Origin: an uncultured Myxococcales bacterium
GTDB taxonomy: Bacteria; Myxococcota; Myxococcia; Myxococcales; Vulgatibacteraceae
Direction of reading: 5' to 3'
Assembly: GCA_964504805.1 (NCBI GenBank)
Contig: CAZDGH010000067.1
Span: 1 to 18,239 of the forward strand
DNA: 18,239 nucleotides
Within the stretch, counting starts at the first letter, position 1. Each line of letters begins with the position of its first letter. This document shows, one piece after another, positions 6,711 through 18,239 of this stretch. Below the pieces are notes generated by a model, which was given only the letters and a program-made list of their open reading frames with translations, had not been told where the DNA came from and ran no database searches. The position numbers and the translations under genes are program-made.

Positions 6711-8525
6711 ATGGCGCTCCCCGACCGACGCGCGCGAACCGCGCCGGCCCCACGCCCGGTCCCCGAGGCGGCGAGGCCGAAGGTGCTCGCCGGCGCGCCT
6801 CGCCCACCGCGACGGCCGCTGCCCCGCTGGCTCCCCCGGCTCTGGATCGCGACCGGCGCCGTCGCCGCCGCGATCGCCGGGCTCGAGTGGGGCTTCGACG
6901 TCGCCTCGCGCCCCGCGGTGCTCCTGGCGGTGACGGTCCTCGACGGCGTGCTCGTCGGGCTGCTCGCCGCGGAGCTCGGCCTGCGCCTCCAGGCTGCCAC
7001 CGAGCGCCTCGGCCTCGTCCGCGACCGCTGGGGCGACGTGCTGGCGCTCGCGCTCTGCCTGCTCCTGGTCGTGCTGGGGCTGCCGCGCGCCGCCGGCGCC
7101 GTCGCCGTCCTGCGCGCGCTCGGCCGCGGCCTGCTCGCCGCGCGACACGTCCCGCTCTTCGGCTCGGCGTTCGCGCTGCTCCAGGCGCGGCCGCTGGTGT
7201 CGCTGATCGCGTCGTTCGCGGTGGTGATCGCCTTCGGCACGCTGGCGCTCACGTTCCCCGCGGCGACGGCCGACCACGCCGGCGCGCCGCTCCTGACCGC
7301 GTTCTTCACCGCCACCTCCGCCACCTGCGTCACCGGGCTCGCCGTGGTGGACACCGCCACCTACTGGTCCCGCTTCGGCCAGCTGGTGATCCTCGGGCTC
7401 GTCCAGATCGGCGGCCTCGGGATCATGACCATCACCACCGCGCTCTCGATGGCGTTCCGCTCCACGATGACGCTGAAGGAGCGCGGCGCGATCCAGGAGA
7501 TGTACGAGGAGGAGACGATCCTCGGCTTCCGGAGGCTCATCGTCCGCGCGGTCGGGATCACCCTCGGCCTCGAGGCGCTCGGCGCCGCCGCGCTCTACCT
7601 GCGCTTCGACGCCTACGCCGACGTCCTCGGCCTCCGCGGCGAGGGGACGGTGCTCTTCCACGCGGTGTTCCACGCGGTCACCGCCTTCTGCAACGCCGGC
7701 TTCGCGCTCCACTCCGACAGCCTGGTGCGGTTCGTCGGCGACGTGCCGGTGAACCTCACCGTCGCGGTGCTGGCGATCGCCGGCGGCCTCGGGTTCCCGG
7801 TGATCGCGAACCTCCTGCACCTCGACCTGCTCCGCGCGCCGCGGCTCTTCTTCCGGCGGCTGCCGGTGCACGACCGGATCGTCTGGGTGGCGACGGCGGC
7901 CCTGCTCGCCGGCGGCACGCTGGCCTACCTGGTGGTGGAGTGGAACGGCGTGCTCCACGGCCTGTCGTTCCGCGAGCGCCTGGTGGCGGCCTCGTTCGCC
8001 TCGGTGACGACGCGCTCGGCCGGGTTCAACACCGTGGACTACGGCCTGCTCACCCAGCCCGGGGTGATCCTCACCTGCGCCCTGATGTTCATCGGCGGCT
8101 CGCCGGGCGGCACCGCCGGCGGCGTCAAGGTCACCACCGCCGCGGTGATGCTGCTCGCGGTGCGCGCGATCCTCCACGGCCGGCCCGACGTGGAGGTGAT
8201 GGGCCGCGAGCTGCCCCGGGCGACGATCTACCGGGCGGTCGCGGTGATCTTCATCAGCGGGGCGGGGCTCACCGCGCTGCTCGTCGTCCTCTTCGCCGTC
8301 GAGCGCCATCCGTTCGACCAGCTGCTCTTCGAGGCGGTGTCCGCGTTCGCCACCACCGGCCTGTCGATGAACCTCACCCCGAAGCTCTCGGCGGCCGGGC
8401 AGCTCGTGGTCGCCTTCCTCATGTTCGTCGGGCGCCTCGGGCCGTTCACCCTGGCGCTGGCCATCGGCTTCTCGCGGCACGCCGCGGCGTACCGCTTCCC
8501 GTCCGGCAAGGTCGTCGTCGGCTGA
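6711..8525 (+). CDS. trkH: Trk/Ktr-type K+ uptake transporter, membrane subunit (TrkH/KtrB family).
   Basis: About 605 aa. Selectivity-filter-like glycine motifs are repeated across the pseudo-repeats (GLVQIGGLGIMT, TTRSAGFNTV, FIGGSPGGTAGGVKVTT, FATTGLS). It has many TM helices, with two extra N-terminal helices as in the TrkH D0 domain. The ATG at 6711 has a weak RBS and is preceded by a Pro/Arg-rich low-complexity stretch, so the start is uncertain. TGA at 8523-8525. Confidence 0.8.
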   Translation: MALPDRRARTAPAPRPVPEAARPKVLAGAPRPPRRPLPRWLPRLWIATGAVAAAIAGLEWGFDVASRPAVLLAVTVLDGVLVGLLAAELGLRLQAATERLGLVRDRWGDVLALALCLLLVVLGLPRAAGAVAVLRALGRGLLAARHVPLFGSAFALLQARPLVSLIASFAVVIAFGTLALTFPAATADHAGAPLLTAFFTATSATCVTGLAVVDTATYWSRFGQLVILGLVQIGGLGIMTITTALSMAFRSTMTLKERGAIQEMYEEETILGFRRLIVRAVGITLGLEALGAAALYLRFDAYADVLGLRGEGTVLFHAVFHAVTAFCNAGFALHSDSLVRFVGDVPVNLTVAVLAIAGGLGFPVIANLLHLDLLRAPRLFFRRLPVHDRIVWVATAALLAGGTLAYLVVEWNGVLHGLSFRERLVAASFASVTTRSAGFNTVDYGLLTQPGVILTCALMFIGGSPGGTAGGVKVTTAAVMLLAVRAILHGRPDVEVMGRELPRATIYRAVAVIFISGAGLTALLVVLFAVERHPFDQLLFEAVSAFATTGLSMNLTPKLSAAGQLVVAFLMFVGRLGPFTLALAIGFSRHAAAYRFPSGKVVVG

Positions 8526-8541
8526 TCCCGGAGGATCGTCC

Positions 8542-9225
8542 GTGTCCAACGAGCTCGTGGTCGTCATCGGCATGGGGCAGTTCGGCGAGGTGGTGGCGAG
8601 GACGCTCGGCGGCCGCGGCCGCGAGGTGCTCGTCCTCGACCGCTCCGAGGAGCGGATCGAGGACCTCAAGGACGCGGTGCCCCGCGCCGTCCGCGCCGAC
8701 TCCACCGACGAGGGCGCGATGCGCGCGCTGGCGGTGGCCGAGGCGAAGACCGCGGTGGTGGCGCTGGGCGAGGAGGACTTCGAGGCGGCGGTGCTCACGG
8801 TCGCGCTGCTCAAGCAGCTCGGCGTGCCGCAGATCATCGTCCGCGCCTCGTCCCGCACCCACGGCCGGATCTTCGAGCTCGTCGGGGCGACGCGGGTGGT
8901 GTTCCCGGAGCTGCAGATGGGCGAGGTGCTGGCGCGGTCGCTCCTCGGCCGCGGCGTCCACGCCTACTTCGCGCTCGAGACGGGCCACACCCTCGCCGAG
9001 GTCGAGGTCCGCCCGGAGTGGGCGCACAGGAGCCTCGCCGAGCTCGAGCTGCGCAAGCGCTACGGCGTGCACGTGCTGGCGATCCGGCGGCCGGTCTCCG
9101 CCGGCGACGGTACCCTCCGCGACCACACCGTGGAGCTGCCCGCGCCGACCGAGGCGCTGCGCACCGGCGACCACCTCGTGCTCGTCGGCACGCAGGACGC
9201 GGTCTCGGGGCTCACCGGTGCGTGA
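8542..9225 (+). CDS. trkA: K+ transporter peripheral RCK subunit (TrkA/KtrA; RCK_N NAD-binding domain plus RCK_C).
   Basis: 227 aa. LVVVIGMGQFGEVVARTL...GREVLVLD is a Rossmann GxGxxG motif, followed by an RCK_C-like C-terminus (LAELELRKRYGVHVLAIRR...GDHLVLVG). GTG at 8542 with a GGAGGAT RBS 5 nt upstream. It lies 16 bp after the trkH stop, so the two are probably an operon. Confidence 0.85.
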   Translation: MSNELVVVIGMGQFGEVVARTLGGRGREVLVLDRSEERIEDLKDAVPRAVRADSTDEGAMRALAVAEAKTAVVALGEEDFEAAVLTVALLKQLGVPQIIVRASSRTHGRIFELVGATRVVFPELQMGEVLARSLLGRGVHAYFALETGHTLAEVEVRPEWAHRSLAELELRKRYGVHVLAIRRPVSAGDGTLRDHTVELPAPTEALRTGDHLVLVGTQDAVSGLTGA

Positions 9226-10957
9226 GGCCTGGGTCACCGCCGCGCTGCTCCTGGCCGCGGGCTGCGTCGACCCGGTGTGCCGGGAGGACGCGGACTGCGC
9301 GGACGGTCTCGGCTGCGTGGAGGGCGCGTGCGTCGAGGCGAGCGCCCAGGAGGCCTGCGGCGACGGCGTCGTCGAGGCGGGTGAGGACTGCGACGAAGGC
9401 GCCGCCAACGGCGCGCCGGAGAGCGCGTGCGGCCCCGGCTGCCTCCAGGCCCGGTGCGGCGACGGCGTGGTGCAGCCGTCGCTCGGCGAGAGCTGCGACG
9501 AGGGCGAGGACGCGAACTCGGCCGGCGGCGGCTGCGGCCCGCGCTGCGTGCCGGTCGCGTGCGGCGACGGCGTCGCCGAAGCCGCCGAGGCGTGCGACGA
9601 AGGCCCCGAGGCGAACCTGCGCGGCCGACACTGCCGCGCCGACTGCACCGCGCCGAGCTGCGGCGACGGCGTCGTCGACGCGCCGTACGAGGACTGCGAC
9701 GACGCGGCGGCCTCGACCGACTTCTCGGAGACCTGCACCGGCGCCTGCCGCGTGCCGTCGTGCGGCGACGGCGTGATCACGCGGGCGACGGAGGCGTGCG
9801 ACGGCGGCCCGGGCTGCACGGCCGCGTGCGCCTTCGAGGGCTGCGGCGCCGTCGAGCTCGTGGCGGGCGCCGGGTTCACGCTGGTACGCCGCGCCGACGG
9901 CGTGCTGCGGGCCGCCGGCAGCGACGCGCAGGGCGAGCTCGGCCGCGTCGACCGCGGCGCGGACGTCCTCTCGCCCGAGGACCTCGACGGCGCCGGCCTG
10001 GTGCAGCTCGCCGCGGGCGAGGCGTTCGTGATCGCGCGGACCGCCGCGGGCACGGTGGTGACCTGGGGCTCGAACGTCGCCGGCCAGCGCGGGCTCTCCG
10101 TGCTCGAGGAGCGCCCGGGCCGCTCGGAGGTGCCGGGGCTGCCGCCGATCGTCGACGTCGCCGCCGGCGCGGTGTCCGCGTTCGCGCTCGACGAGGACGG
10201 CGCGATCTGGAGCTGGGGCGGCGCCTACTACCGCGAGCTCGGCGGCGACGACGGCGTCGTCGAGGCCTGCCCGATCGGCCACCGCTGCCGGCCCGAGCCA
10301 CGGCGGCTCGAGGTCGCCGGCGTGCGCTTCGTCGACGTCGCCGCCGGCCCGTACACCGCGCTCGCGATCGACGAGCGGGGCGAGCTCTGGGGCTTCGGCC
10401 AGGCGGCGTTCGGCCAGCTCGGCCACGCCGTGGCCGAGGCGTGCCCGGACGGCGTGAACGTGTGCGTGCGCGCGCCGGACCGGGTGGGCGTCGGCGGCGT
10501 GGTGCGCGCCGCCGCCGGCCAGGAGTTCACGCTCTTCCTCGACCGCCGCGGCGCGCTCCGTGGCCTCGGCCGCATCGCCTACGCCGGCGCGCCGGCCGAC
10601 GCGCCCGAGCTCGTGGTGTCCACGCCCACCCCGATCCCGCTCGCGAGCGGCGCGCGGATCCACGACGTCGCCGCGGGGCCGTACCACGCCCTCGTCCTCG
10701 ACGAGGCCGGCGTCGTCCACGCCGGCGGCGGCGACGACGACGGCCGCCTGGGACGCGGGCCGTTCGTCGGCGTGACGCCGCTCGCGGAGGTGCCGGGTCT
10801 CGGCCGCGCCACGCAGGTGGCGGCGGCGCTCGCGCACTCGGGGGTGCTCCTCGACGACGGCTCGGTCGTCGCGTTCGGCACGGGCGCGAACGGCCAGCTC
10901 GGGCAAGGCGACGGCGCGCCGTCGGGCACGCCGGTGGCGTTCCCCGTCTGCCCCTAG
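9218..10957 (+). CDS. Lipoprotein with 5 N-terminal Myxococcus cysteine-rich repeats (CGDGVV..E.CD.G type), followed by RCC1-like beta-propeller repeats.
   Basis: 579 aa. Its GTG at 9218 overlaps the trkA stop by 8 nt. A short lipoprotein-type signal M/VREAWVTAALLLAAGC has a lipobox-like LAAGC. There are five ~34-aa repeats, each starting CGDGVV/A/I....E.CD.G. Six to seven RCC1-type blades follow (WGSNVAGQRG, WSWGGAYYRELG, WGFGQAAFGQLG, GRIAYAG, GGGDDDGRLG, FGTGANGQLGQG). TAG at 10955-10957. The 1356-aa track ORF is a shadow fusion. Confidence 0.7.
   Translation: MREAWVTAALLLAAGCVDPVCREDADCADGLGCVEGACVEASAQEACGDGVVEAGEDCDEGAANGAPESACGPGCLQARCGDGVVQPSLGESCDEGEDANSAGGGCGPRCVPVACGDGVAEAAEACDEGPEANLRGRHCRADCTAPSCGDGVVDAPYEDCDDAAASTDFSETCTGACRVPSCGDGVITRATEACDGGPGCTAACAFEGCGAVELVAGAGFTLVRRADGVLRAAGSDAQGELGRVDRGADVLSPEDLDGAGLVQLAAGEAFVIARTAAGTVVTWGSNVAGQRGLSVLEERPGRSEVPGLPPIVDVAAGAVSAFALDEDGAIWSWGGAYYRELGGDDGVVEACPIGHRCRPEPRRLEVAGVRFVDVAAGPYTALAIDERGELWGFGQAAFGQLGHAVAEACPDGVNVCVRAPDRVGVGGVVRAAAGQEFTLFLDRRGALRGLGRIAYAGAPADAPELVVSTPTPIPLASGARIHDVAAGPYHALVLDEAGVVHAGGGDDDGRLGRGPFVGVTPLAEVPGLGRATQVAAALAHSGVLLDDGSVVAFGTGANGQLGQGDGAPSGTPVAFPVCP
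9353..9840 (+). repeat. Tandem in-frame ~102-nt coding repeats (5 units) encoding the Myxococcus Cys-rich repeat module.
   Basis: tgcggcgacggcgt recurs at about 9356, 9458, 9560, 9659 and 9761. These are imperfect coding repeats, not CRISPR, because the spacers are themselves homologous. Confidence 0.6.
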
Positions 10958-12203: not shown

Positions 12204-12431
12204 GCTGCACCTCCTCTCCCCTTCCTTGCTGCGGTCGAAAAAGTGGGAGCGCCGCCTCCGCGAGGCCCGCGTCGCCGTCCCCGACGCCCCGGGTCGCGGC
12301 ATGCGGCGCGCCTGCGGCGCGGGGGCGGGGCGGGCCGTCGCTGCGCTGGCCCCGTCCCGGCGTCCGCCGCGGGCCGCACGGCCACGCCGGGCCGGCTCCG
12401 CGGGCGTCGCTCGGGCGGCTCTCCCGTTGCG

Positions 12432-12503
12432 TGCTCCGAGGGGGATTCGAACCCCCGACCACCGGCGTAAAGCCGGTGCCCTACCAGGCTGGGCGATCGG
12501 AGC
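12432..12503 (-). tRNA. tRNA gene. Acceptor stem, D-arm and T-arm are canonical. The anticodon arm is atypical. The anticodon is ambiguous: TAC (Val) if the loop is 5 nt, or UUA if a 7-nt loop forms.
   Basis: Reverse complement: GCTCCGA-TC-GCCC-AGCCTGGTA-GGGC-A-CCGGC-TTTAC-GCCGG-TGGTC-GGGGG-TTCGAAT-CCCCC-TCGGAGC-A. The 7-bp acceptor stem GCTCCGA/TCGGAGC is perfect. The D-arm GCCC/GGGC has an AGCCTGGTA loop. The T-arm GGGGG-TTCGAAT-CCCCC is present. Total length is 72 nt, two short of a standard tRNA, and the deficit falls in the anticodon loop: a perfect 7-bp stem CACCGGC/GCCGGTG encloses only TTTAC. No CCA is encoded. Confidence 0.65.
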
Positions 12504-12681
12504 CATCTGCGTTTCAGGCAGACGGCAGGTGGACCGTGACGTGGTCCGGCCGGGTGGGACCCGAGGTGCGGAAGCCGGACGTGGCGACGCGGACCGGGGA
12601 CGCGGGCGGGAGCGGCGCGGAGCCCCTCCTTCCCGTGCCCGGCCGCGGCCCACCGGGCCCGCGGGGCACTCCCACCGAGAC

Positions 12682-13215
12682 ATGAAAGCTCGGCTTCTCT
12701 ACGATGCGCGCACCATGCGCGCCCTCCTCCTCGCCCTTCCTCTCCTCGTCCTCGGCGCCTGCGCCGGCGACGAGCCGGTGCGTGAGAACCCGCTCGGCAC
12801 CTGCGCCACCAACGACGAGTGCCACACCGAGGAGTACTGCGGCGGCTTCCTCGGCGGCGACTGCGGCACCTCGGGGCAGCGCGGCGGCTGCACCCTGCGG
12901 CTCACCGAGTGCGATCCCGTCGACGAGCCGGTCTGCGGCTGCGACGGCAGCGTCTACCCGAGCACCTGCGAGGCCGCGCGCAACGGCGTCGCCCTCTCCG
13001 CCCTCGGCGGCTGCGAGGTGCCCGCCGGCCGCTTCGCCTGCGGCCCCCGCCTCTGCGACGCCGCCACCGAGTACTGCCGCGACGCCGGCTCGTCCGTCGG
13101 CTGCCAGCCCCTCCCCGACGGCTGCGACGGCACCGACTGCGCCTGCTTCGCCGGCGACCTGCCGGGCTCCTGCACGTCGTGCGCGGTCGCTGGAGGCCTG
13201 GTGCTGGACTGCTGA
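12682..13215 (+). CDS. Cysteine-rich lipoprotein with a Kazal-like (serine protease inhibitor-type) domain.
   Basis: 177 aa. The start is ATG at 12682, or alternatively the in-frame ATG at 12715. Lipoprotein signal MRALLLALPLLVLGAC. The mature part has about 24 Cys. The segment GGCTLRLTECDPVDEPVCGCDGSVYPSTCEAARNGVALSALGGC fits Kazal spacing C-x6-C-x7-(PVCG.DG..Y)-C-...-C. TGA at 13213-13215. The 485-aa track ORF is a shadow extension. Confidence 0.65.
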   Translation: MKARLLYDARTMRALLLALPLLVLGACAGDEPVRENPLGTCATNDECHTEEYCGGFLGGDCGTSGQRGGCTLRLTECDPVDEPVCGCDGSVYPSTCEAARNGVALSALGGCEVPAGRFACGPRLCDAATEYCRDAGSSVGCQPLPDGCDGTDCACFAGDLPGSCTSCAVAGGLVLDC

Positions 13216-13218
13216 AAG

Positions 13219-13378
13219 CAGGCTCCAGGCTCCAGGCTTCAGGCTCCAGCCAGCAGGTAGCTCGGCGCTCCGCGCCTCGCGCTCCCCAGCTGGCGAGCTT
13301 GCCGGGGCCCCCAGCCTGGTGCCGCCGATACGAAGCGGTGGGTGCTGGAGCCCGGAGCCTGGAGCCTGGAGCCTCAGG
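13219..13378. repeat. Copy B of the ~155-bp terminal-inverted-repeat intergenic element (same family as 291..446).
   Basis: Left arm ggctccaggctccaggct at 13221-13238. Right arm ggagcctggagcctggagcc at 13356-13375. Core gcaggtagctcggcgctccgcgcctcgcgctc is identical to copy A apart from one or two substitutions. The gaagcggtgggtgctggagc block is shared. It starts 4 nt after the stop of the Kazal-like gene. Confidence 0.6.
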
Positions 13379-13823
13379 CCCGGAAGGCCTGCTACACCGC
13401 GGGAGCCCGGCGCGGGCGCCGCCGCACCGGGGGGACGGGCTGGGGCGGGCCGCGAGGGTGGGTTGCCGAACGGCGGCCACGACGCCCCGTGGACGGGGCG
13501 GCGCCCGCGCGCGGGCTCCGGGACGGGGGGGCGCCCGGCCGGAGCCGGCAGCGCCGCATCCCTCACGACGAGCGGCCTCGGGCTTCGGCCGTCGCGTGTC
13601 TCTGTATTCGGATTCTGTGTACACGTCTCCCGTCGCGCCGCGGCTCTCGCCGTGCGCCGATCGCAGCCCGTGCGATCCGGGTCTCTCTCTGCCGCGCCGG
13701 AGCCGGTGCCCGTGGGCCCTTGGCTCCCCCGCCTCACCGCCGCCGCCCGCCGCGTGCGCGCCCGGGCCGAGCCCAGGAACGTCGAAGGCCGGGTCCCCTT
13801 CGTGGGAGCCCGGCCTCCGAGGA

Positions 13824-13840
13824 CCAGCGAGAATCGCTGG
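13824..13840. terminator. Small perfect hairpin ccagcga-gaa-tcgctgg, 6 nt 3' of the candidate 42-aa ORF on the minus strand.
   Basis: 7-bp stem with a 3-nt loop, seen directly. A candidate terminator for the FHA/small-ORF transcript. Confidence 0.3.
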
Positions 13841-13845
13841 GAAAC

Positions 13846-13974
13846 CTAGGGGACCGGCCCTCCCGAGGGGAAGAAGCCCAGGTCGCGGATCGTGCCGCTG
13901 GCCGCGTCGTACGGGCACGGGCCGGCGGGCGTCGCCGCGTTCCTGCCGTCGCGCTGTCCGTGGTTCCACGCCAT
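13846..13974 (-). CDS. Candidate small protein of 42 aa (MAWNHGQRDGRNAATPAGPCPYDAASGTIRDLGFFPSGGPVP), downstream of the FHA gene on the same strand.
   Basis: ATG at 13974-13972 with a GAGGTGG RBS about 4 nt upstream. 40 of 42 codons end in G or C, close to the bias of real genes in this genome. TAG at 13848-13846, followed by the hairpin. There are no homology clues, so the call is weak. Confidence 0.25.
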   Translation of the reverse strand: MAWNHGQRDGRNAATPAGPCPYDAASGTIRDLGFFPSGGPVP

Positions 13975-14079
13975 GGCCACCTCGTCTCGATCCGACTGCG
14001 GCGCCGGCGGGGACCGCCGACGAACGAACGGGAAGCTAGCAGCGACGACCCGAAAAGTCAACCAACCGCTGTCTCGGAT

Positions 14080-14922
14080 TTACGCGCCCTCGCGGTAGGT
14101 GAACACCGCACCGCCCACCTCGAGCAGGTCGCCGTCGCCCAGGGGCGCCTTCTGGACCCGGGCGCCGTTCACCTTCACCCGGCCGAGGAGGCCGAGCTTC
14201 CGCACCGCGTAGCCGCCGTCGCCCCGGCGCTCCAGGGTCGCCGCCTCGTCGGCGCCGACCTCGGGCACGCGGAGCTGGCAGCGGTCCGAGGCGCCCAGCA
14301 CGTTCGCGGCGTGGCGGAGCGCGTGGACCCGCACCGGCGTCACCTGGTGCTGCACCAGGTGCGGCTCGAGCAGCGCGGCCTTCTCCCGCCGCAGCCGCGC
14401 GAGCTCGGCAGGGGCGATGTGGCGGGTGGTGCTCCCGCTCGCGTCCTCCCGCCCGGCGGCCTCGAGCGGCTCGAAGCTCCTCGACAGCGCCTCGTAGTCG
14501 AAGCGCCGCGCCTCGAGCGTGATCAGCTCCGCCTCTCGCTCCTCGCCGCCGGAGGGGCCGTCGTCGAGGACCAGCTCGCCGGTGACCAGCGGCAGCTCCT
14601 CCTCGACGAGCGCGGTGTCCGGGATCGACTCCATGACGCCCTGCCGGTAGCGGACGACGTGGGCGCCGAGCTCGATCCGGTCGCCGTCGGCGAGCGGCCG
14701 CTTGTACTCGCGGCGGCCGTTCACGAAGGTGCCGTTGGTGGTGCCGAGGTCCTCGAGCCACATCGCGCCGTCCTTGCCGTACACGCGGGCGTGCCGGCGC
14801 GAGACGATCGGATCGTCGAGGCGGATGGCGGCGCCCGCCTCGCGGCCGAGCACCATGCACGAGCCGTCCCAGACGACGTCGCGCAGCTTCTTCCCGTCCT
14901 TCACGATCTCGAACGTCGCCAT
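14080..14922 (-). CDS. Protein with two FHA (forkhead-associated, phospho-Thr binding) domains.
   Basis: 280 aa from MATFEIVKDGKKL. ATG at 14922-14920 with a GGGAGGTGG RBS 5 nt upstream. N-terminal FHA: VLGREAGAAIRLDDPIVSRRHARVY...LEDLGTTNGTFVNGRR...GDRIELG. C-terminal FHA: LGASDRCQLRVPEVGADEAATLERRGDGGYAVRKLGLLGRVKVNGARV...GDLLEVGGAVF. It is divergent from the Ser/Thr kinase gene. Confidence 0.8.
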   Translation of the reverse strand: MATFEIVKDGKKLRDVVWDGSCMVLGREAGAAIRLDDPIVSRRHARVYGKDGAMWLEDLGTTNGTFVNGRREYKRPLADGDRIELGAHVVRYRQGVMESIPDTALVEEELPLVTGELVLDDGPSGGEEREAELITLEARRFDYEALSRSFEPLEAAGREDASGSTTRHIAPAELARLRREKAALLEPHLVQHQVTPVRVHALRHAANVLGASDRCQLRVPEVGADEAATLERRGDGGYAVRKLGLLGRVKVNGARVQKAPLGDGDLLEVGGAVFTYREGA

Positions 14923-15035
14923 GGAGCCACCTCCCGGTGCGTGTGCGGGGCGCGGACACCCGTAGCAGAAGCTCGCGGCTCGACGACATCCCATGCCCCG
15001 GATCGGGCCGCCGCGACCGGGCTAACATCGCGGCC

Positions 15036-18000
15036 GTGCCGACGACCGCCCGCGCCGCGCCGCCGCCGCTCCTCGGGCGGTACCGCGTCCTCGCGCCGCT
15101 CTCCGCGGGGCCGGACGGCGCCGCCTACCAGGCGCGCGACGAGCGGGACCGGAGCCCGGTCGAGGTGCGGAGGCTGTCCGCGGCCGCGGCGGCGTCGCTC
15201 CGCGCGCGACTCCCGCTGCTCGCGCGCGCGGGGCACCCGGGCGTGCTGCGCGTGCTCGAGGCCCGGCTCGACGGCGCGGAGCGGATCGTCGTGGTCGAGG
15301 CCGTCGGACGCACGCTCGCGGAGCTCGAAGGGCGCGGCCCGCTCCTCCCGCCGGAGCTGCGGCTCCGCCTGGCACCGCTCGCCGAGGCGCTCGCGGGGGC
15401 GCACCGCCTCGGCCTCGTCCACGGGCGCCTCGACGCGGGGGCGGTGCGGCTGCGCGACGACGGGTCGCCGTGCCTCGACCTCACCGGCCTGGACGTGGGC
15501 CGCCCGGGGCGATCCGGCGCACGGGCGCCCGCGCACGCCGACGAGGGCCCCGCCGGGGACGTGCGCGCGCTCGGCCTGCTGGCGCGGGAGCTCGCCGGGG
15601 AGGGCCTCGCGCAGGACGGCGCGCTGTCCGCCCTCGTCGGCGAGCTGCTGGCGCCGGCGCCCGAGGATCGGCCGCCGGCCGCCGAGGTGGCGCGGCGGCT
15701 CGCCTCGGCCCCCGAGCCGCGGACCCTGGTGGAGCCGCCGGCCGCAGAGGCCGAGTCGGAGGACCCGAGGACGCTCGGCCGCTTCGAGCTGCTCGAGAAG
15801 CTCGGAGAGGGCGCCATGGGCCGCGTCTACCGCGCCCGCGACGTCGCCGACGGCTCCGTGGTCGCGGTGAAGGTGCTCCTGCCCGAGCTCGCGCGCAGCG
15901 CGCAGCACCTGAGGCGCTTCGAGCGCGAGGCGCGGCTGCTCGCGCGGCTCCGCGGCCCGAACGTCGCCGCGCTGCTCGAGGTGAACCGCGATCGCGGCCG
16001 GCACTTCCTAGCCATGGAGTACGTGGAGGGCCCGACGCTCTCGCAGCTCCTCCGGGAGCGGGGCCGCCTCGGCGTCGAGGAGGCGCTGTCTCTCGCCACC
16101 GATCTCGCCCTCGCCGACGTGCACGCGCTCGGGATCGTCCACCGCGACGTGAAGCCGGGGAACGTGCTCGTCTCCGCCCGCGAGGGCTCGGCGAAGCTCG
16201 TGGACTTCGGGGTGGCAAGGCTCGCCGAGCCGGACGGCCCCGAGGCCGACCTCACCCGGGCCGGCGCGCTGGTCGGCTCGCCGCACTTCATGTCGCCGGA
16301 GCAGTGCGCCGGCCTGCCCGCCGACGCGCGCGCCGACGTCTACGCCCTCGGGGTGACGCTCTTCCGGGCGCTCGCCGGCCGGCTGCCGTTCGAGGCCGCA
16401 GACGCGCGCGGCGTCATCGCCCAGCACCTGTCGGCGCCGCCGCCGTCGCTCCGCGCGCTGGCGCCGGAGGTCGGGGACGGCGTCGTCCACCTCGTGGCGC
16501 GCATGCTGGCGAAGGAGCCCGCCGAGCGTCCGGCCGACGGCGCCGCGGTGCTCGACGAGCTGCTCCGGCTCCGCGGCCGCGCGCCCGCCGGCGCCGGGGC
16601 CCACCCCGCCGCGCCCGCCGGCGCGGGTCCGGCGCTCCGCTACGAGTTCGAGTGGGCGCTCGCGGTCCCGCCGGCGCGGCTCTGGCCCTTCGTCGCCGAC
16701 ACCAACCGCGTCAACAAGGCGATCGGCCTCGAGGCGTTCGCGCTGACCTACGACGGACCGCCGGACGCCCGCGTGCAGCGGGCGCGCACGCGGCTCTCCG
16801 GCCTGGACCTCTCCTGGGTCGAGCACCCGTTCGAGTGGGTCGAGGGGCGCCGCTTCGGCGTCGTCCGCGAGTTCTCGGAGGGGCCGTTCACCTGGTTCCG
16901 CAGCGTCGTCGACCTTCGCCCGGATCCAGAGGGCGGCACGAGGCTCGTGCAGGTGATCGAGGCCGAGCCCCGCGGGCTCGTCGGCCGCGCGGCGGCGGCG
17001 CTCGAGATCGGCGTCAAGGCGAAGCGCAACCTGGGGAGGCTCTACGAGCGCGTCGCCGAGCTGGCCGCCGCGGAGCCGGGCCCGGAGACGCGGGTGCTCG
17101 CGTCGCCGTTCGAGGAGCCGCACCGGCTCTCCGCGCCGGCGCGGGCGCGGCTCGACCGCCACGTGGCGGCGCTGCTGGCGCAGGGCGTCGACGCCGACGT
17201 GGTGGAGCGGCTCTCGATCTACGTCGCCTCGGCGCCGGCCGCCGAGGTGGCGCGGCTCCGTCCCCGCGAGCTGGCGCGGCGCTTCCGCGTCGAGGAGGCG
17301 CCCGTGGTCGAGGCCTGCCTCCGCGCCGCGGCCGAGGGGATGCTCGCGCTCCGCTGGGATCTGCTCTGCCCGGTGTGCCGCGTCTCCTCCGGGTTCGTGG
17401 AGACGCTTCGCGCCGTGCGCGAGCACGCCCGGTGCGAGGCTTGCGGCGTCGACTTCCCGCTCGACCTCGGGCGGTCGGTGGAGCTCGCGTTCCGGGTCTC
17501 CCACGAGCTGCGCGAGGCGGACCACGCGACGTACTGCTCCGGCGGCCCTGCGCGGCTCCCGCACGTGGCGCTGCAGGTGCGGCTCGCGGCGGACGAGCGC
17601 CTCGAGGTCGAGCTCGGGCTCGGCCGCGGCACGTACCGGCTCGCGAGCCCGGCGCTGCCGACGGCGGCGCTGGTGCGGGTGGCGGGGCAGGAGGCGCAGC
17701 CGCGGCTCGAGCTCCCGCTCGGTCCGCCCGCCTCGCCGGCGCCGCTCGGGCTCCGGGAGGGCCGGCAGCTCCTCGTCCTCGAGAACCGCGCCGGCCGCGA
17801 GCTCCTGGTGCGGCTCGAGCGCACCGCGGGCCGCGACGACGCGCTCACCGCGGCGGAGGCCGCGAGCTCGCCGCTGTTCCGCGCGCTCTTCCCCGCGGAG
17901 CTGCTCGAGCGCGGGCGGCTCGTGCAGCTCGAGGGCGTGACGCTCCTCGCCGTCGACGCCGCCGACGCGCCGGCGCTCTACCGCGCCCTGGGCGAGCCGG

Positions 18001-18239
18001 CGGCGTTCGCGCGGCTCCACGAGCTGCGGGAGAGGGTCGCGGCCCACGGGGCGTCGCACGGCGGCGCCGCGGTGAAGGCGCTCGGCGACGGCCTCCTCCT
18101 CGCGTTCGGCGACGCGGCCGCGGCGGGCGCCGCCGCGGTGGGGCTCCGCGGGCTCCTCTCGGGCGGCGCCTCCCTCGAGGGCGCCGGCGTCCGCGCCGCG
18201 GCGGTCCGCGGCCCGGCGCTCGTCGCCCCCGGCGACGGC
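15036..18239 (+). CDS. Large multidomain Ser/Thr protein kinase, 3'-partial. Order: N-terminal degenerate pseudokinase-like domain, canonical Hanks kinase domain, SRPBCC-like and CxxC..CxxC zinc-ribbon-like region, class III adenylyl/guanylyl-cyclase-like domain.
   Basis: The frame is open from the GTG at 15036 to the window end, at least 1067 aa. The start is uncertain because the RBS is weak. Pseudokinase region, about 15036-15700: LGRYRVLAPLSAGPDGAAYQA replaces GxGxxG; VEVRRL replaces VAIK; LVHGRLDAGAVRL replaces HRDxKxxN; no DFG. Active kinase, about 15780-16560: LGEGAMGRVYRA, VAVKVL, IVHRDVKPGNVLV, DFGVAR, GSPHFMSPEQ. Then RLWPFVADTNRVNKAIGL (SRPBCC-like), CPVCR (about 17365) and CEACG (about 17440). 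Finally VTLLAVDAADAPALY...HGGAAVKALGDGLLLAFGDAAAA (about 17920-18130), collinear with the cyclase homology-domain core including both metal-binding Asp positions. Confidence 0.85.
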   Translation, partial: MPTTARAAPPPLLGRYRVLAPLSAGPDGAAYQARDERDRSPVEVRRLSAAAAASLRARLPLLARAGHPGVLRVLEARLDGAERIVVVEAVGRTLAELEGRGPLLPPELRLRLAPLAEALAGAHRLGLVHGRLDAGAVRLRDDGSPCLDLTGLDVGRPGRSGARAPAHADEGPAGDVRALGLLARELAGEGLAQDGALSALVGELLAPAPEDRPPAAEVARRLASAPEPRTLVEPPAAEAESEDPRTLGRFELLEKLGEGAMGRVYRARDVADGSVVAVKVLLPELARSAQHLRRFEREARLLARLRGPNVAALLEVNRDRGRHFLAMEYVEGPTLSQLLRERGRLGVEEALSLATDLALADVHALGIVHRDVKPGNVLVSAREGSAKLVDFGVARLAEPDGPEADLTRAGALVGSPHFMSPEQCAGLPADARADVYALGVTLFRALAGRLPFEAADARGVIAQHLSAPPPSLRALAPEVGDGVVHLVARMLAKEPAERPADGAAVLDELLRLRGRAPAGAGAHPAAPAGAGPALRYEFEWALAVPPARLWPFVADTNRVNKAIGLEAFALTYDGPPDARVQRARTRLSGLDLSWVEHPFEWVEGRRFGVVREFSEGPFTWFRSVVDLRPDPEGGTRLVQVIEAEPRGLVGRAAAALEIGVKAKRNLGRLYERVAELAAAEPGPETRVLASPFEEPHRLSAPARARLDRHVAALLAQGVDADVVERLSIYVASAPAAEVARLRPRELARRFRVEEAPVVEACLRAAAEGMLALRWDLLCPVCRVSSGFVETLRAVREHARCEACGVDFPLDLGRSVELAFRVSHELREADHATYCSGGPARLPHVALQVRLAADERLEVELGLGRGTYRLASPALPTAALVRVAGQEAQPRLELPLGPPASPAPLGLREGRQLLVLENRAGRELLVRLERTAGRDDALTAAEAASSPLFRALFPAELLERGRLVQLEGVTLLAVDAADAPALYRALGEPAAFARLHELRERVAAHGASHGGAAVKALGDGLLLAFGDAAAAGAAAVGLRGLLSGGASLEGAGVRAAAVRGPALVAPGDG

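Follow-up and report, generated by a model that had tools for sequence, protein, structure and literature searches.

Results

The window analysed here is the whole 18,239-nucleotide stretch of contig CAZDGH010000067.1 (assembly GCA_964504805.1), from an uncultured Myxococcales bacterium of the Vulgatibacteraceae, and the last gene on its forward strand encodes a multidomain Ser/Thr kinase of at least 1068 amino acids (aa) in a frame that stays open up to the contig end (15036..18239, +). Our subject is the first part of this gene, positions 15036-15760 (+), for which an annotation made from the sequence alone (the initial annotation) had proposed a degenerate, pseudokinase-like domain fused ahead of an active kinase domain. 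Collinear relatives extend further than the window protein, and the 3′ end of the gene is missing, the contig stopping about 70-85 codons short of the stop codon. From N- to C-terminus the protein comprises a kinase-like domain (the N-domain), a linker, a canonical kinase domain, a putative SRPBCC/START-like domain, a DUF5939 domain and the start of a divergent cyclase-homology domain; upstream, a gene for an FHA-domain protein is transcribed in the opposite direction.

The plus-strand frame is uninterrupted from about 14937 to the window end, and its codon-position composition is coding-like. GC content at third codon positions (GC3) is 0.95-1.00 in the kinase frame across 15001-18000, with the frame constant and values of 0.95-0.97 typical of the region under study; second codon positions have the lowest GC content, as a plus-strand gene predicts, in sequence of 73-81% GC. 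There are three in-frame start candidates, GTG 14937, GTG 14943 and GTG 15036, the first of which was chosen by a Logan gene call. On sequence grounds we consider GTG 15036 the most likely start, because the segment 14937-15035 has a GC3 of only about 82% and several rare codons (manual count), because GTG 14937 and GTG 14943 lie only 15-21 bp from the ATG at 14922 that opens the divergent FHA gene and is itself preceded by GGAGGTG, and because the N-termini of relatives begin 4-5 residues ahead of a conserved Tyr. The divergent intergenic region between the two genes then measures 113 bp (14923..15035), and the frame-specific GC pattern is lost in 14851-15150. Since all the alternative starts lie upstream, 15036-15760 is translated whichever start holds. 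The initial annotation had allowed that a true start further downstream might leave the region untranslated; the region is coding and lies in a continuous frame.

A predicted kinase fold at the N-terminus

Residues 13-229 (15072..15722, +) are predicted to form a bilobal kinase fold in which the activation segment and C-lobe are shortened. Standard family libraries do not reveal it: a Pfam scan of residues 1-245 returned no family, even at E ≤ 1, and an NCBIfam scan of the N-domain gave only marginal matches to the N-lobe (E about 1e-3). Word-indexed homologue searches were uninformative because the Ala/Arg/Leu-rich sequence swamps the word index; the N-domain alone had one weak match, and the N-domain alignment retrieved only ordinary single-domain kinases of 175-551 aa. 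Homologues were obtained by an exhaustive search of representative sequences and from a full-length family alignment and, as Pfam and NCBIfam proved too insensitive, we used family profiles. The InterPro-style check suggested in the initial annotation would thus have missed the domain, which Pfam leaves undetected.

A profile of the N-domain built from 38 relatives aligned over the whole domain with the active-kinase profile of the same proteins (hhalign probability 99.9%, E 4.9e-34, 214 columns), and a profile of 29 sequences had 2186 distinct matches among PDB sequences, with PknA first at E 2e-27. The single N-domain sequence matched bacterial Ser/Thr-kinase profiles (PD-T4-6; E 2e-9), the MkoA kinase profile (residues 14-223, E 2e-7) and the kinase chain 9gmp_A (E 6e-6), the last alignment placing HGRLDAGAV on HGDLKPSNV. 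An exhaustive search with the N-domain against 1.84 billion representatives yielded 15,094 matches at E ≤ 1e-3, 177 of them at E ≤ 1e-10.

Structure prediction gave a consistent picture. AlphaFold2 modelled residues 1-245 from a 40-sequence alignment with a mean predicted local distance difference test (pLDDT) score of 90.3 and a predicted template modelling (pTM) score of 0.84, in the order β1-β3, αC, β4-β5, αD, αE, β7-β8, αF and two more helices. Foldseek comparison of this model with the PDB returned at least 1998 matches at E ≤ 1e-3; the 50 listed were all protein kinases, led by PknI of Mycobacterium tuberculosis (E 4e-12, template modelling (TM) score 0.68). The hhalign alignment locates the difference from the active domain in a shorter activation segment and αF-αH region. 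By profile, by predicted structural order and by kinase-only Foldseek matches, the N-domain has the Hanks-type, or eukaryotic protein kinase, fold, and the kinase-like layout first noted for the initial ~240 residues is borne out.

Replacement of catalytic motifs

Three degenerate motifs had been quoted for this domain, and all were found where they had been placed: APLSAGPDGAAY at residues 20-31 (15093-15128), VEVRRL at residues 42-47 (15159-15176) and HGRLDAGAVRL at residues 129-139 (inside 15399-15452). Motif columns were counted in two samples, one of 73 proteins and one of 60 independent GTDB loci. The modified Gly-rich loop, S23-A-G25-P-D27-G28 (15102..15119, +), aligns to GEGAMG of the active domain and has the family consensus G-A-G-x-D-G, with G25, D27 and G28 conserved in 65/73, 59/73 and 63/73 proteins, respectively. 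The Lys of strand β3 (VAIK) is replaced by R45 (15168..15170, +), VEVR being aligned to VAVK of the active domain (K279); in relatives this column is mostly Arg (37-41 sequences), with Lys absent from the commonest residues listed. The αC Glu, E298 in the active domain, is replaced by R58 (15207..15209, +), and Arg occupies the column in 65/73 and 55/60 relatives (89-92%). The degenerate catalytic loop H129-G130-R131-L-D133-A-G-A136 (15420..15443, +) stands in place of H-R-D-x-K-x-x-N and aligns to HRDVKPGN; H129 (64/73) and G130 (68/73) are conserved, and the column of the HRD Asp is variable, with Asp in only 5/73 and 3/60 relatives, as are the Lys and Asn columns.

Two of the three residues by which a pseudokinase is defined in sequence are therefore gone, the β3 Lys to R45 and the HRD Asp to R131, and the third is retained as D148. 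The segment D148-L-T-G151 (15477..15488, +) aligns to D390-F-G of the active domain with a one-residue insertion and has the family consensus D-F-T-G, and its Asp, at the metal-binding position, is kept in 69/73 and 50/60 relatives (83-95%). The initial annotation, which stated that no DFG is present, was right about four of its five signatures and wrong about this one; its broader claim that every catalytic signature is lacking holds for the β3 Lys, the αC Glu, the HRD Asp and the catalytic-loop Lys and Asn, but not for the DFG Asp or the three Gly-loop glycines, which are conserved in the family. The αF Asp, a structural hallmark of the kinase C-lobe, is present as D175 (15558..15560, +) and is Asp in 72/73 and 60/60 relatives, and the N-domain also keeps the αE His, the APE Pro and the subdomain-XI Arg (R212). 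Its strongest-conserved positions cluster at the former catalytic cleft. As judged from profiles and predicted structure, 15036-15760 encodes a diverged copy of a Hanks-type Ser/Thr kinase that has kept the fold and lost the phosphotransfer machinery.

The adjoining domain is an active Hanks-type Ser/Thr kinase domain of the RD type (residues 248-515; 15777..16580, +), recognised by Pfam as Pkinase (residues 250-500, E 7e-46) and by a PknB-type NCBIfam model (E 9e-80). Its catalytic set is complete (K279, E298, H369-R370-D371, K373, N376, D390-F391-G392 and P421-E422), these residues are all invariant in the family, and the model of the domain matches PknB with TM 0.92-0.94, normalised by target. 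An acidic, Pro-rich linker of 18 residues (230-247; 15723..15776, +) separates the two kinase-like domains; its length and sequence vary among relatives, and pLDDT falls below 50 at residues 229-240 of a two-domain model. The proposed arrangement, a pseudokinase directly N-terminal to a fully canonical kinase in one chain, is thus upheld on both counts.

Family, distribution and selection

Sequence comparison places the protein in an unnamed family of signalling proteins, cytoplasmic and about 1150-1300 aa in length, that combine a pseudokinase, an active RD kinase, an SRPBCC-like domain, DUF5939 with four cysteines (Cys4) and a divergent cyclase-homology domain. In BLASTP searches, query residues 13-1064 were collinear with subject residues 3 to about 1150 at 36-46% identity in at least 30 representatives, and collinear relatives number dozens (1116-1377 aa). 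Pfam recovered the same order in eight relatives: an undetected N-domain, Pkinase, Polyketide_cyc2 in some, DUF5939 and, in some, a sub-cut-off Guanylate_cyc match. Relatives carry source names such as 'serine/threonine protein kinase/class 3 adenylate cyclase' or plain protein kinase, and the named organisms include Tundrisphaera lichenicola and a Sandaracinaceae metagenome-assembled genome (MAG).

To chart the distribution, we searched a single genome of each GTDB species for peptides characteristic of the family's SRPBCC/DUF5939 region and confirmed candidates by tblastn, which gave 290 family loci among GTDB species representatives. The best 80 of these 290 are overwhelmingly from Planctomycetota (Gemmataceae, Isosphaeraceae, Pirellulales and Planctomycetaceae), with a few from Myxococcota. 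The N-domain lies in the same open reading frame (ORF) in 59 of the 70 loci whose 5′ end could be judged, and in an overlapping upstream ORF in another frame in 6 of the remaining 11; it is retained in about 93% of determinable loci, across two phyla. The six other-frame cases (L008, L009, L011, L013, L026 and L034, at about 8000-9000 in locus coordinates) represent either frameshifts, for which we suspect assembly error, several of them looking like long-read MAG assemblies, or split genes in which the pseudokinase is separate.

Selection was estimated by the Nei-Gojobori method in 24 moderately diverged locus pairs, which come mostly from one planctomycete clade and are non-independent. In these pairs the ratio of nonsynonymous to synonymous substitution rates (dN/dS) was 0.11-0.42 for the N-domain, mostly 0.2-0.3, compared with 0.05-0.31 for the active domain and 0.06-0.27 for the C-terminal part; identity was 56-94% in the N-domain versus 84-96% in the kinase domain. 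These values point clearly to purifying selection acting on the pseudokinase, with a constraint about two- to three-fold weaker than that on the catalytic domain. The residues that replaced the catalytic ones are themselves conserved (R58 in about 90%, G130 in about 93% and D27 in about 80% of relatives), and this conservation together with purifying selection rules out a neutral relic. The initial annotation had looked to related Myxococcota for orthologues retaining the same degenerate motifs as a sign of selection; relatives do keep the motifs under purifying selection, but they belong mainly to Planctomycetota.

Outside the family, 120 proteins (among P0038-P0390) have two or three tandem kinase-like domains; active-active and active-degenerate combinations both occur, as do triples (for example P0125 and P0061). 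Multi-kinase-domain proteins appear to be common in Planctomycetota- and Myxococcota-type sequences, judging from this sample, which is biased by the two-domain query that produced it.

The C-terminal domains and neighbouring genes

The C-terminal half of the protein carries putative sensor domains. An SRPBCC/START-like domain is placed at about residues 533-690 (16632..17105, +) by comparison with relatives: Pfam detects Polyketide_cyc2 at the equivalent place in P0009, P0063 and P0033, and the region is conserved in the family (e.g. EHPFEW), with no Pfam match in the SRPBCC-like region of the window protein itself. DUF5939 follows (residues 712-827; 17169..17516, +; Pfam PF19363, E 8e-14), with four cysteines, C778, C781, C800 and C803 (nucleotides 17367-17444), that are invariant in the family alignment. 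Their CxxC...CxxC layout looks like a zinc ribbon. Pkinase and DUF5939 are the only Pfam matches in the window protein.

The last domain is a divergent class III cyclase-homology domain, of which only the start is present (residues 968-1068; 17937..18239, +) before the contig end. Guanylate_cyc scores in relatives (20.7 and 21.3 bits) fall just under the Pfam cut-off of 21.9, and PF00211 occurs in their precomputed Pfam matches. The two cyclase metal-Asp columns are mixed among 73 relatives: the first has Asp in 25, Glu in 18 and other residues in 30, and the second has Glu in 40, Asp in 23 and other residues in 10. The window protein has Asp at both (D974 and D1018), the remainder of its domain lying beyond the contig end. 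From this pattern, the family may carry a second pseudo-enzyme domain. The TOMM kinase/cyclase fusion (TIGR03903) was tried as an identity for the protein and rejected, at 126.3 bits against a cut-off of 705.75 and over the kinase region only.

The divergent neighbour encodes an FHA-domain protein of 280 aa (14080..14922, −; Pfam FHA, E 8e-23), a possible phosphothreonine-binding partner, and the same gene was called on two short Logan contigs (SRR10580905 and SRR32005136). In 15 of the 80 related loci, chiefly from Pirellulales and Planctomycetaceae, the family gene is followed on its own strand, after 50-150 bp, by an FHA gene. Loci listed with such a pair are L008, L009, L011, L014, L018, L021, L031, L040, L065, L066, L067, L069, L075 and L077, with the FHA gene further away in L036 and L074. 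Counting the window, the kinase-FHA pairing recurs in two different arrangements, but it is confined to a minority of loci.

Other genes of the window are ordinary chromosomal ones, encoding an SDR protein, an AlkZ-like glycosylase, a tRNA-guanine transglycosylase, a NUDIX protein, TrkH/TrkA, an RCC1-repeat protein with DUF4215 and a Band 7 protein. The RCC1-like-repeat protein (9200-10957, +) matches WD40_RLD at E 2e-60 in addition to its DUF4215 repeat, a cysteine-rich repeat typical of Myxococcota. The FHA and AlkZ-like proteins are the sole members of their 90% clusters. About 1.7 kb of the window before the 3′ end of the FHA gene (12300-14040) has no clear codon-position GC signal, and the long ORFs there (12550-13215, +; 12514-13737, −; 13342-14040, +) have no Pfam match.

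Comparison with known systems

The closest architectural analogy would be with GCN2, followed by the JH2-JH1 tandem of JAKs. GCN2 (eIF2α kinase 4) has the order pseudokinase-kinase-HisRS-like, its pseudokinase being directly N-terminal to the kinase. The present protein likewise has a degenerate domain directly before an active kinase, followed by sensors that include an enzyme-like, probably non-catalytic module; here the sensors would be the SRPBCC, DUF5939 and divergent cyclase domains. It differs in that Pfam finds no RWD, HisRS-like or ribosome-binding domain in it and in being a bacterial protein with a PknB-like active domain, and common descent of the two tandems is not in evidence.

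In JAKs, too, a pseudokinase (JH2) is directly N-terminal to the kinase (JH1), and JH2 keeps the β3 Lys and binds ATP. The JH2-JH1 order is the one found here, and the fold and the DFG Asp are kept, whereas the β3 Lys is Arg in the window protein and mostly so in its relatives. Pfam detects neither FERM nor SH2, the active domain is a PknB-like Ser/Thr kinase rather than a Tyr kinase, and a docked interface is unsupported by our two-domain model. PknI (PDB 5m06), the best Foldseek match of the N-domain model, resembles it as a bacterial Hanks-type domain, although identity to the N-domain is only 22-26% and PknI is a single-domain membrane kinase rather than part of a tandem.

The plant tandem immune receptors WTK1/Yr15, Sr62 and RPG1 belong to a family named kinase-pseudokinase in the title of PMC6170490. 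Going by that title, they share with the present protein the presence of two kinase-like domains per polypeptide, one of them degenerate, and differ from it in that here the pseudokinase is the leading domain, and sensor and cyclase-like domains extend the protein by about 550 aa beyond the tandem. An immune context was not found at the present locus, where PADLOC matches were to generic kinase profiles only. Anti-phage kinase systems (PD-T4-6, MADS Mad6 and BREX PglW) were rejected as candidates, their matches covering the kinase domain only and the neighbouring genes being of housekeeping type.

Among bacteria, a recent review (PMC12599244) describes the Ser/Thr pseudokinase families ActPs1-3, GLW, CP1, DYD and DLHK, which resemble the N-domain in combining a Hanks-type fold with degradation of the VAIK, HRD and DFG-type motifs. 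None of them matches the present family in architecture or taxonomy. CP1 pseudokinases, for instance, are tied to a COG3899 ATPase domain and occur in cyanobacteria and proteobacteria (PMC12599244); Pfam finds no ATPase domain in the window protein or in the eight relatives.

Discussion

We are highly confident that the gene encodes a pseudokinase domain that is under selection and fused to an active kinase. The wider explanation, in which a translated and conserved pseudokinase also acts in cis on the adjacent kinase, is in our view the probable one as a whole, and the particular role of cis-allosteric regulator, suggested by analogy, stands close to an even balance. By that analogy with GCN2 and JAKs, the N-domain would phosphorylate nothing itself but serve as an allosteric or scaffolding partner of the neighbouring kinase domain, whose activity it would tune in response to the C-terminal sensors. 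The conserved Arg45, Arg58, Asp27 and Asp148 in the cleft would probably form an internal network that replaces nucleotide binding, and ATP binding would be disfavoured by the missing β3 Lys combined with the Asp within the Gly loop. Phosphothreonines made by the active domain could plausibly be read by the neighbouring FHA protein.

Several observations weigh against this explanation. The dN/dS pairs, as noted above, come mostly from one clade and are non-independent, and two loci, L067 (a Gimesia sp. MAG) and L077 (a Planctomycetales MAG), are without the N-domain, indicating that the rest of the protein can exist alone. In both of these loci an FHA gene follows directly. The two-domain AlphaFold model has a pTM of 0.61, versus 0.84 for the N-domain alone, though both domains are confident, and therefore lends no support to a fixed JH2-JH1-like interface; a Foldseek search with it found nothing but single kinase domains (query-normalised TM at most 0.47) and was uninformative on a JAK-like arrangement. 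Only a minority of loci show the association with FHA, and bacterial kinases in general often have FHA genes nearby. Finally, the retained DFG Asp and three Gly-loop glycines may leave room for ligand or metal binding, or for an atypical activity.

Some of these observations fit other explanations. The N-domain might exert no allosteric control and act mainly as a docking platform for partners, such as the adjacent FHA protein or substrates, or as a phospho-acceptor of the active domain. The divergent FHA gene here and the FHA genes immediately downstream in 15/80 related loci would be expected of such a platform, and the low two-domain pTM is compatible with loosely tethered domains; yet 65/80 related loci are without an adjacent FHA gene, the best-conserved residues line the former cleft with no obvious phospho-acceptor loop, and the activation segment is short and poorly conserved. 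We regard a docking role without allostery as a minor but credible possibility, one that is compatible with, rather than exclusive of, action in cis.

It is unlikely that the N-domain is an atypical enzyme or small-molecule sensor whose remodelled cleft (Asp27, Arg45, Arg58 and Asp148) accommodates a nucleotide or some other ligand, or supports non-canonical catalysis, in the way of SelO, SidJ or WNK-type rewired kinases. The clustering of the most conserved positions at the cleft, the DFG Asp in 83-95% of relatives and the retention of three Gly-loop glycines beside a conserved Gly-loop Asp would suit such a role, but the catalytic Asp, Lys and Asn have no conserved substitutes in their highly variable columns, the acidic Gly-loop residue and lost β3 Lys would disfavour binding of ATP phosphates, and the N-domain's rate of evolution is 2-3 times that of the active domain. 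We give an equally low rating to the specific version, drawn by analogy with SelO and SidJ, in which Asp27, Arg45, Arg58, H129-G130 and Asp148 of DFTG form a new ligand or catalytic site and, by sensing a small molecule or carrying out a reaction other than phosphotransfer, gate the adjacent kinase; if this is true, bacteria would have a class of sensors based on a rewired kinase fold.

That the N-domain is a decaying remnant of a tandem duplication, itself functionless, is very improbable. The N-domain does evolve faster than the rest of the protein, as its lower identity indicates, and two loci are without it and six have it in a different frame, but its dN/dS of about 0.2-0.3 is far below 1, it is retained in two phyla, its replacement residues are conserved and its fold is predicted confidently. 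That the region is an annotation artefact, its real start lying downstream, is refuted for practical purposes: GTG 15036 is without a clear Shine-Dalgarno sequence and the start is ambiguous among three codons, but none of these is downstream, codon-position GC is coding-like from 15001 onward, and relatives, conserved at the protein level with dN/dS below 1, open with the same domain.

The finding is not surprising in principle. It adds a new bacterial example of a well-known module, apparently undescribed, in hundreds of species. The initial annotation had called the arrangement rarely discussed in bacterial Ser/Thr kinases, and this agrees with what we found in the literature on bacterial Ser/Thr kinases and pseudokinases: the pseudokinase review (PMC12599244) has no mention of tandem, cyclase, Planctomyc or Myxococc, and tandem kinase-like domains and cyclase fusions go unmentioned in a survey of planctomycete kinases (PMC11032199), a classification of prokaryotic kinases (PMC2877116) and a bacterial kinase atlas preprint. 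No mention of DUF5939 was found in that literature either.

Bacterial pseudokinases have barely been studied, and this family offers a large, diverse and alignable natural set, with 290 species-representative loci and thousands of metagenomic relatives, in which a dead kinase domain is fixed beside a live one, with coupling to cyclase-like domains and putative ligand sensors. Pfam annotation misses the pseudokinase domain wholly, so tandem kinase-like architectures are under-counted in Planctomycetota and Myxococcota. The family could provide a simple prokaryotic model for how pseudokinases control neighbouring kinases, a question now studied mainly in JAKs, GCN2 and plant tandem kinases.

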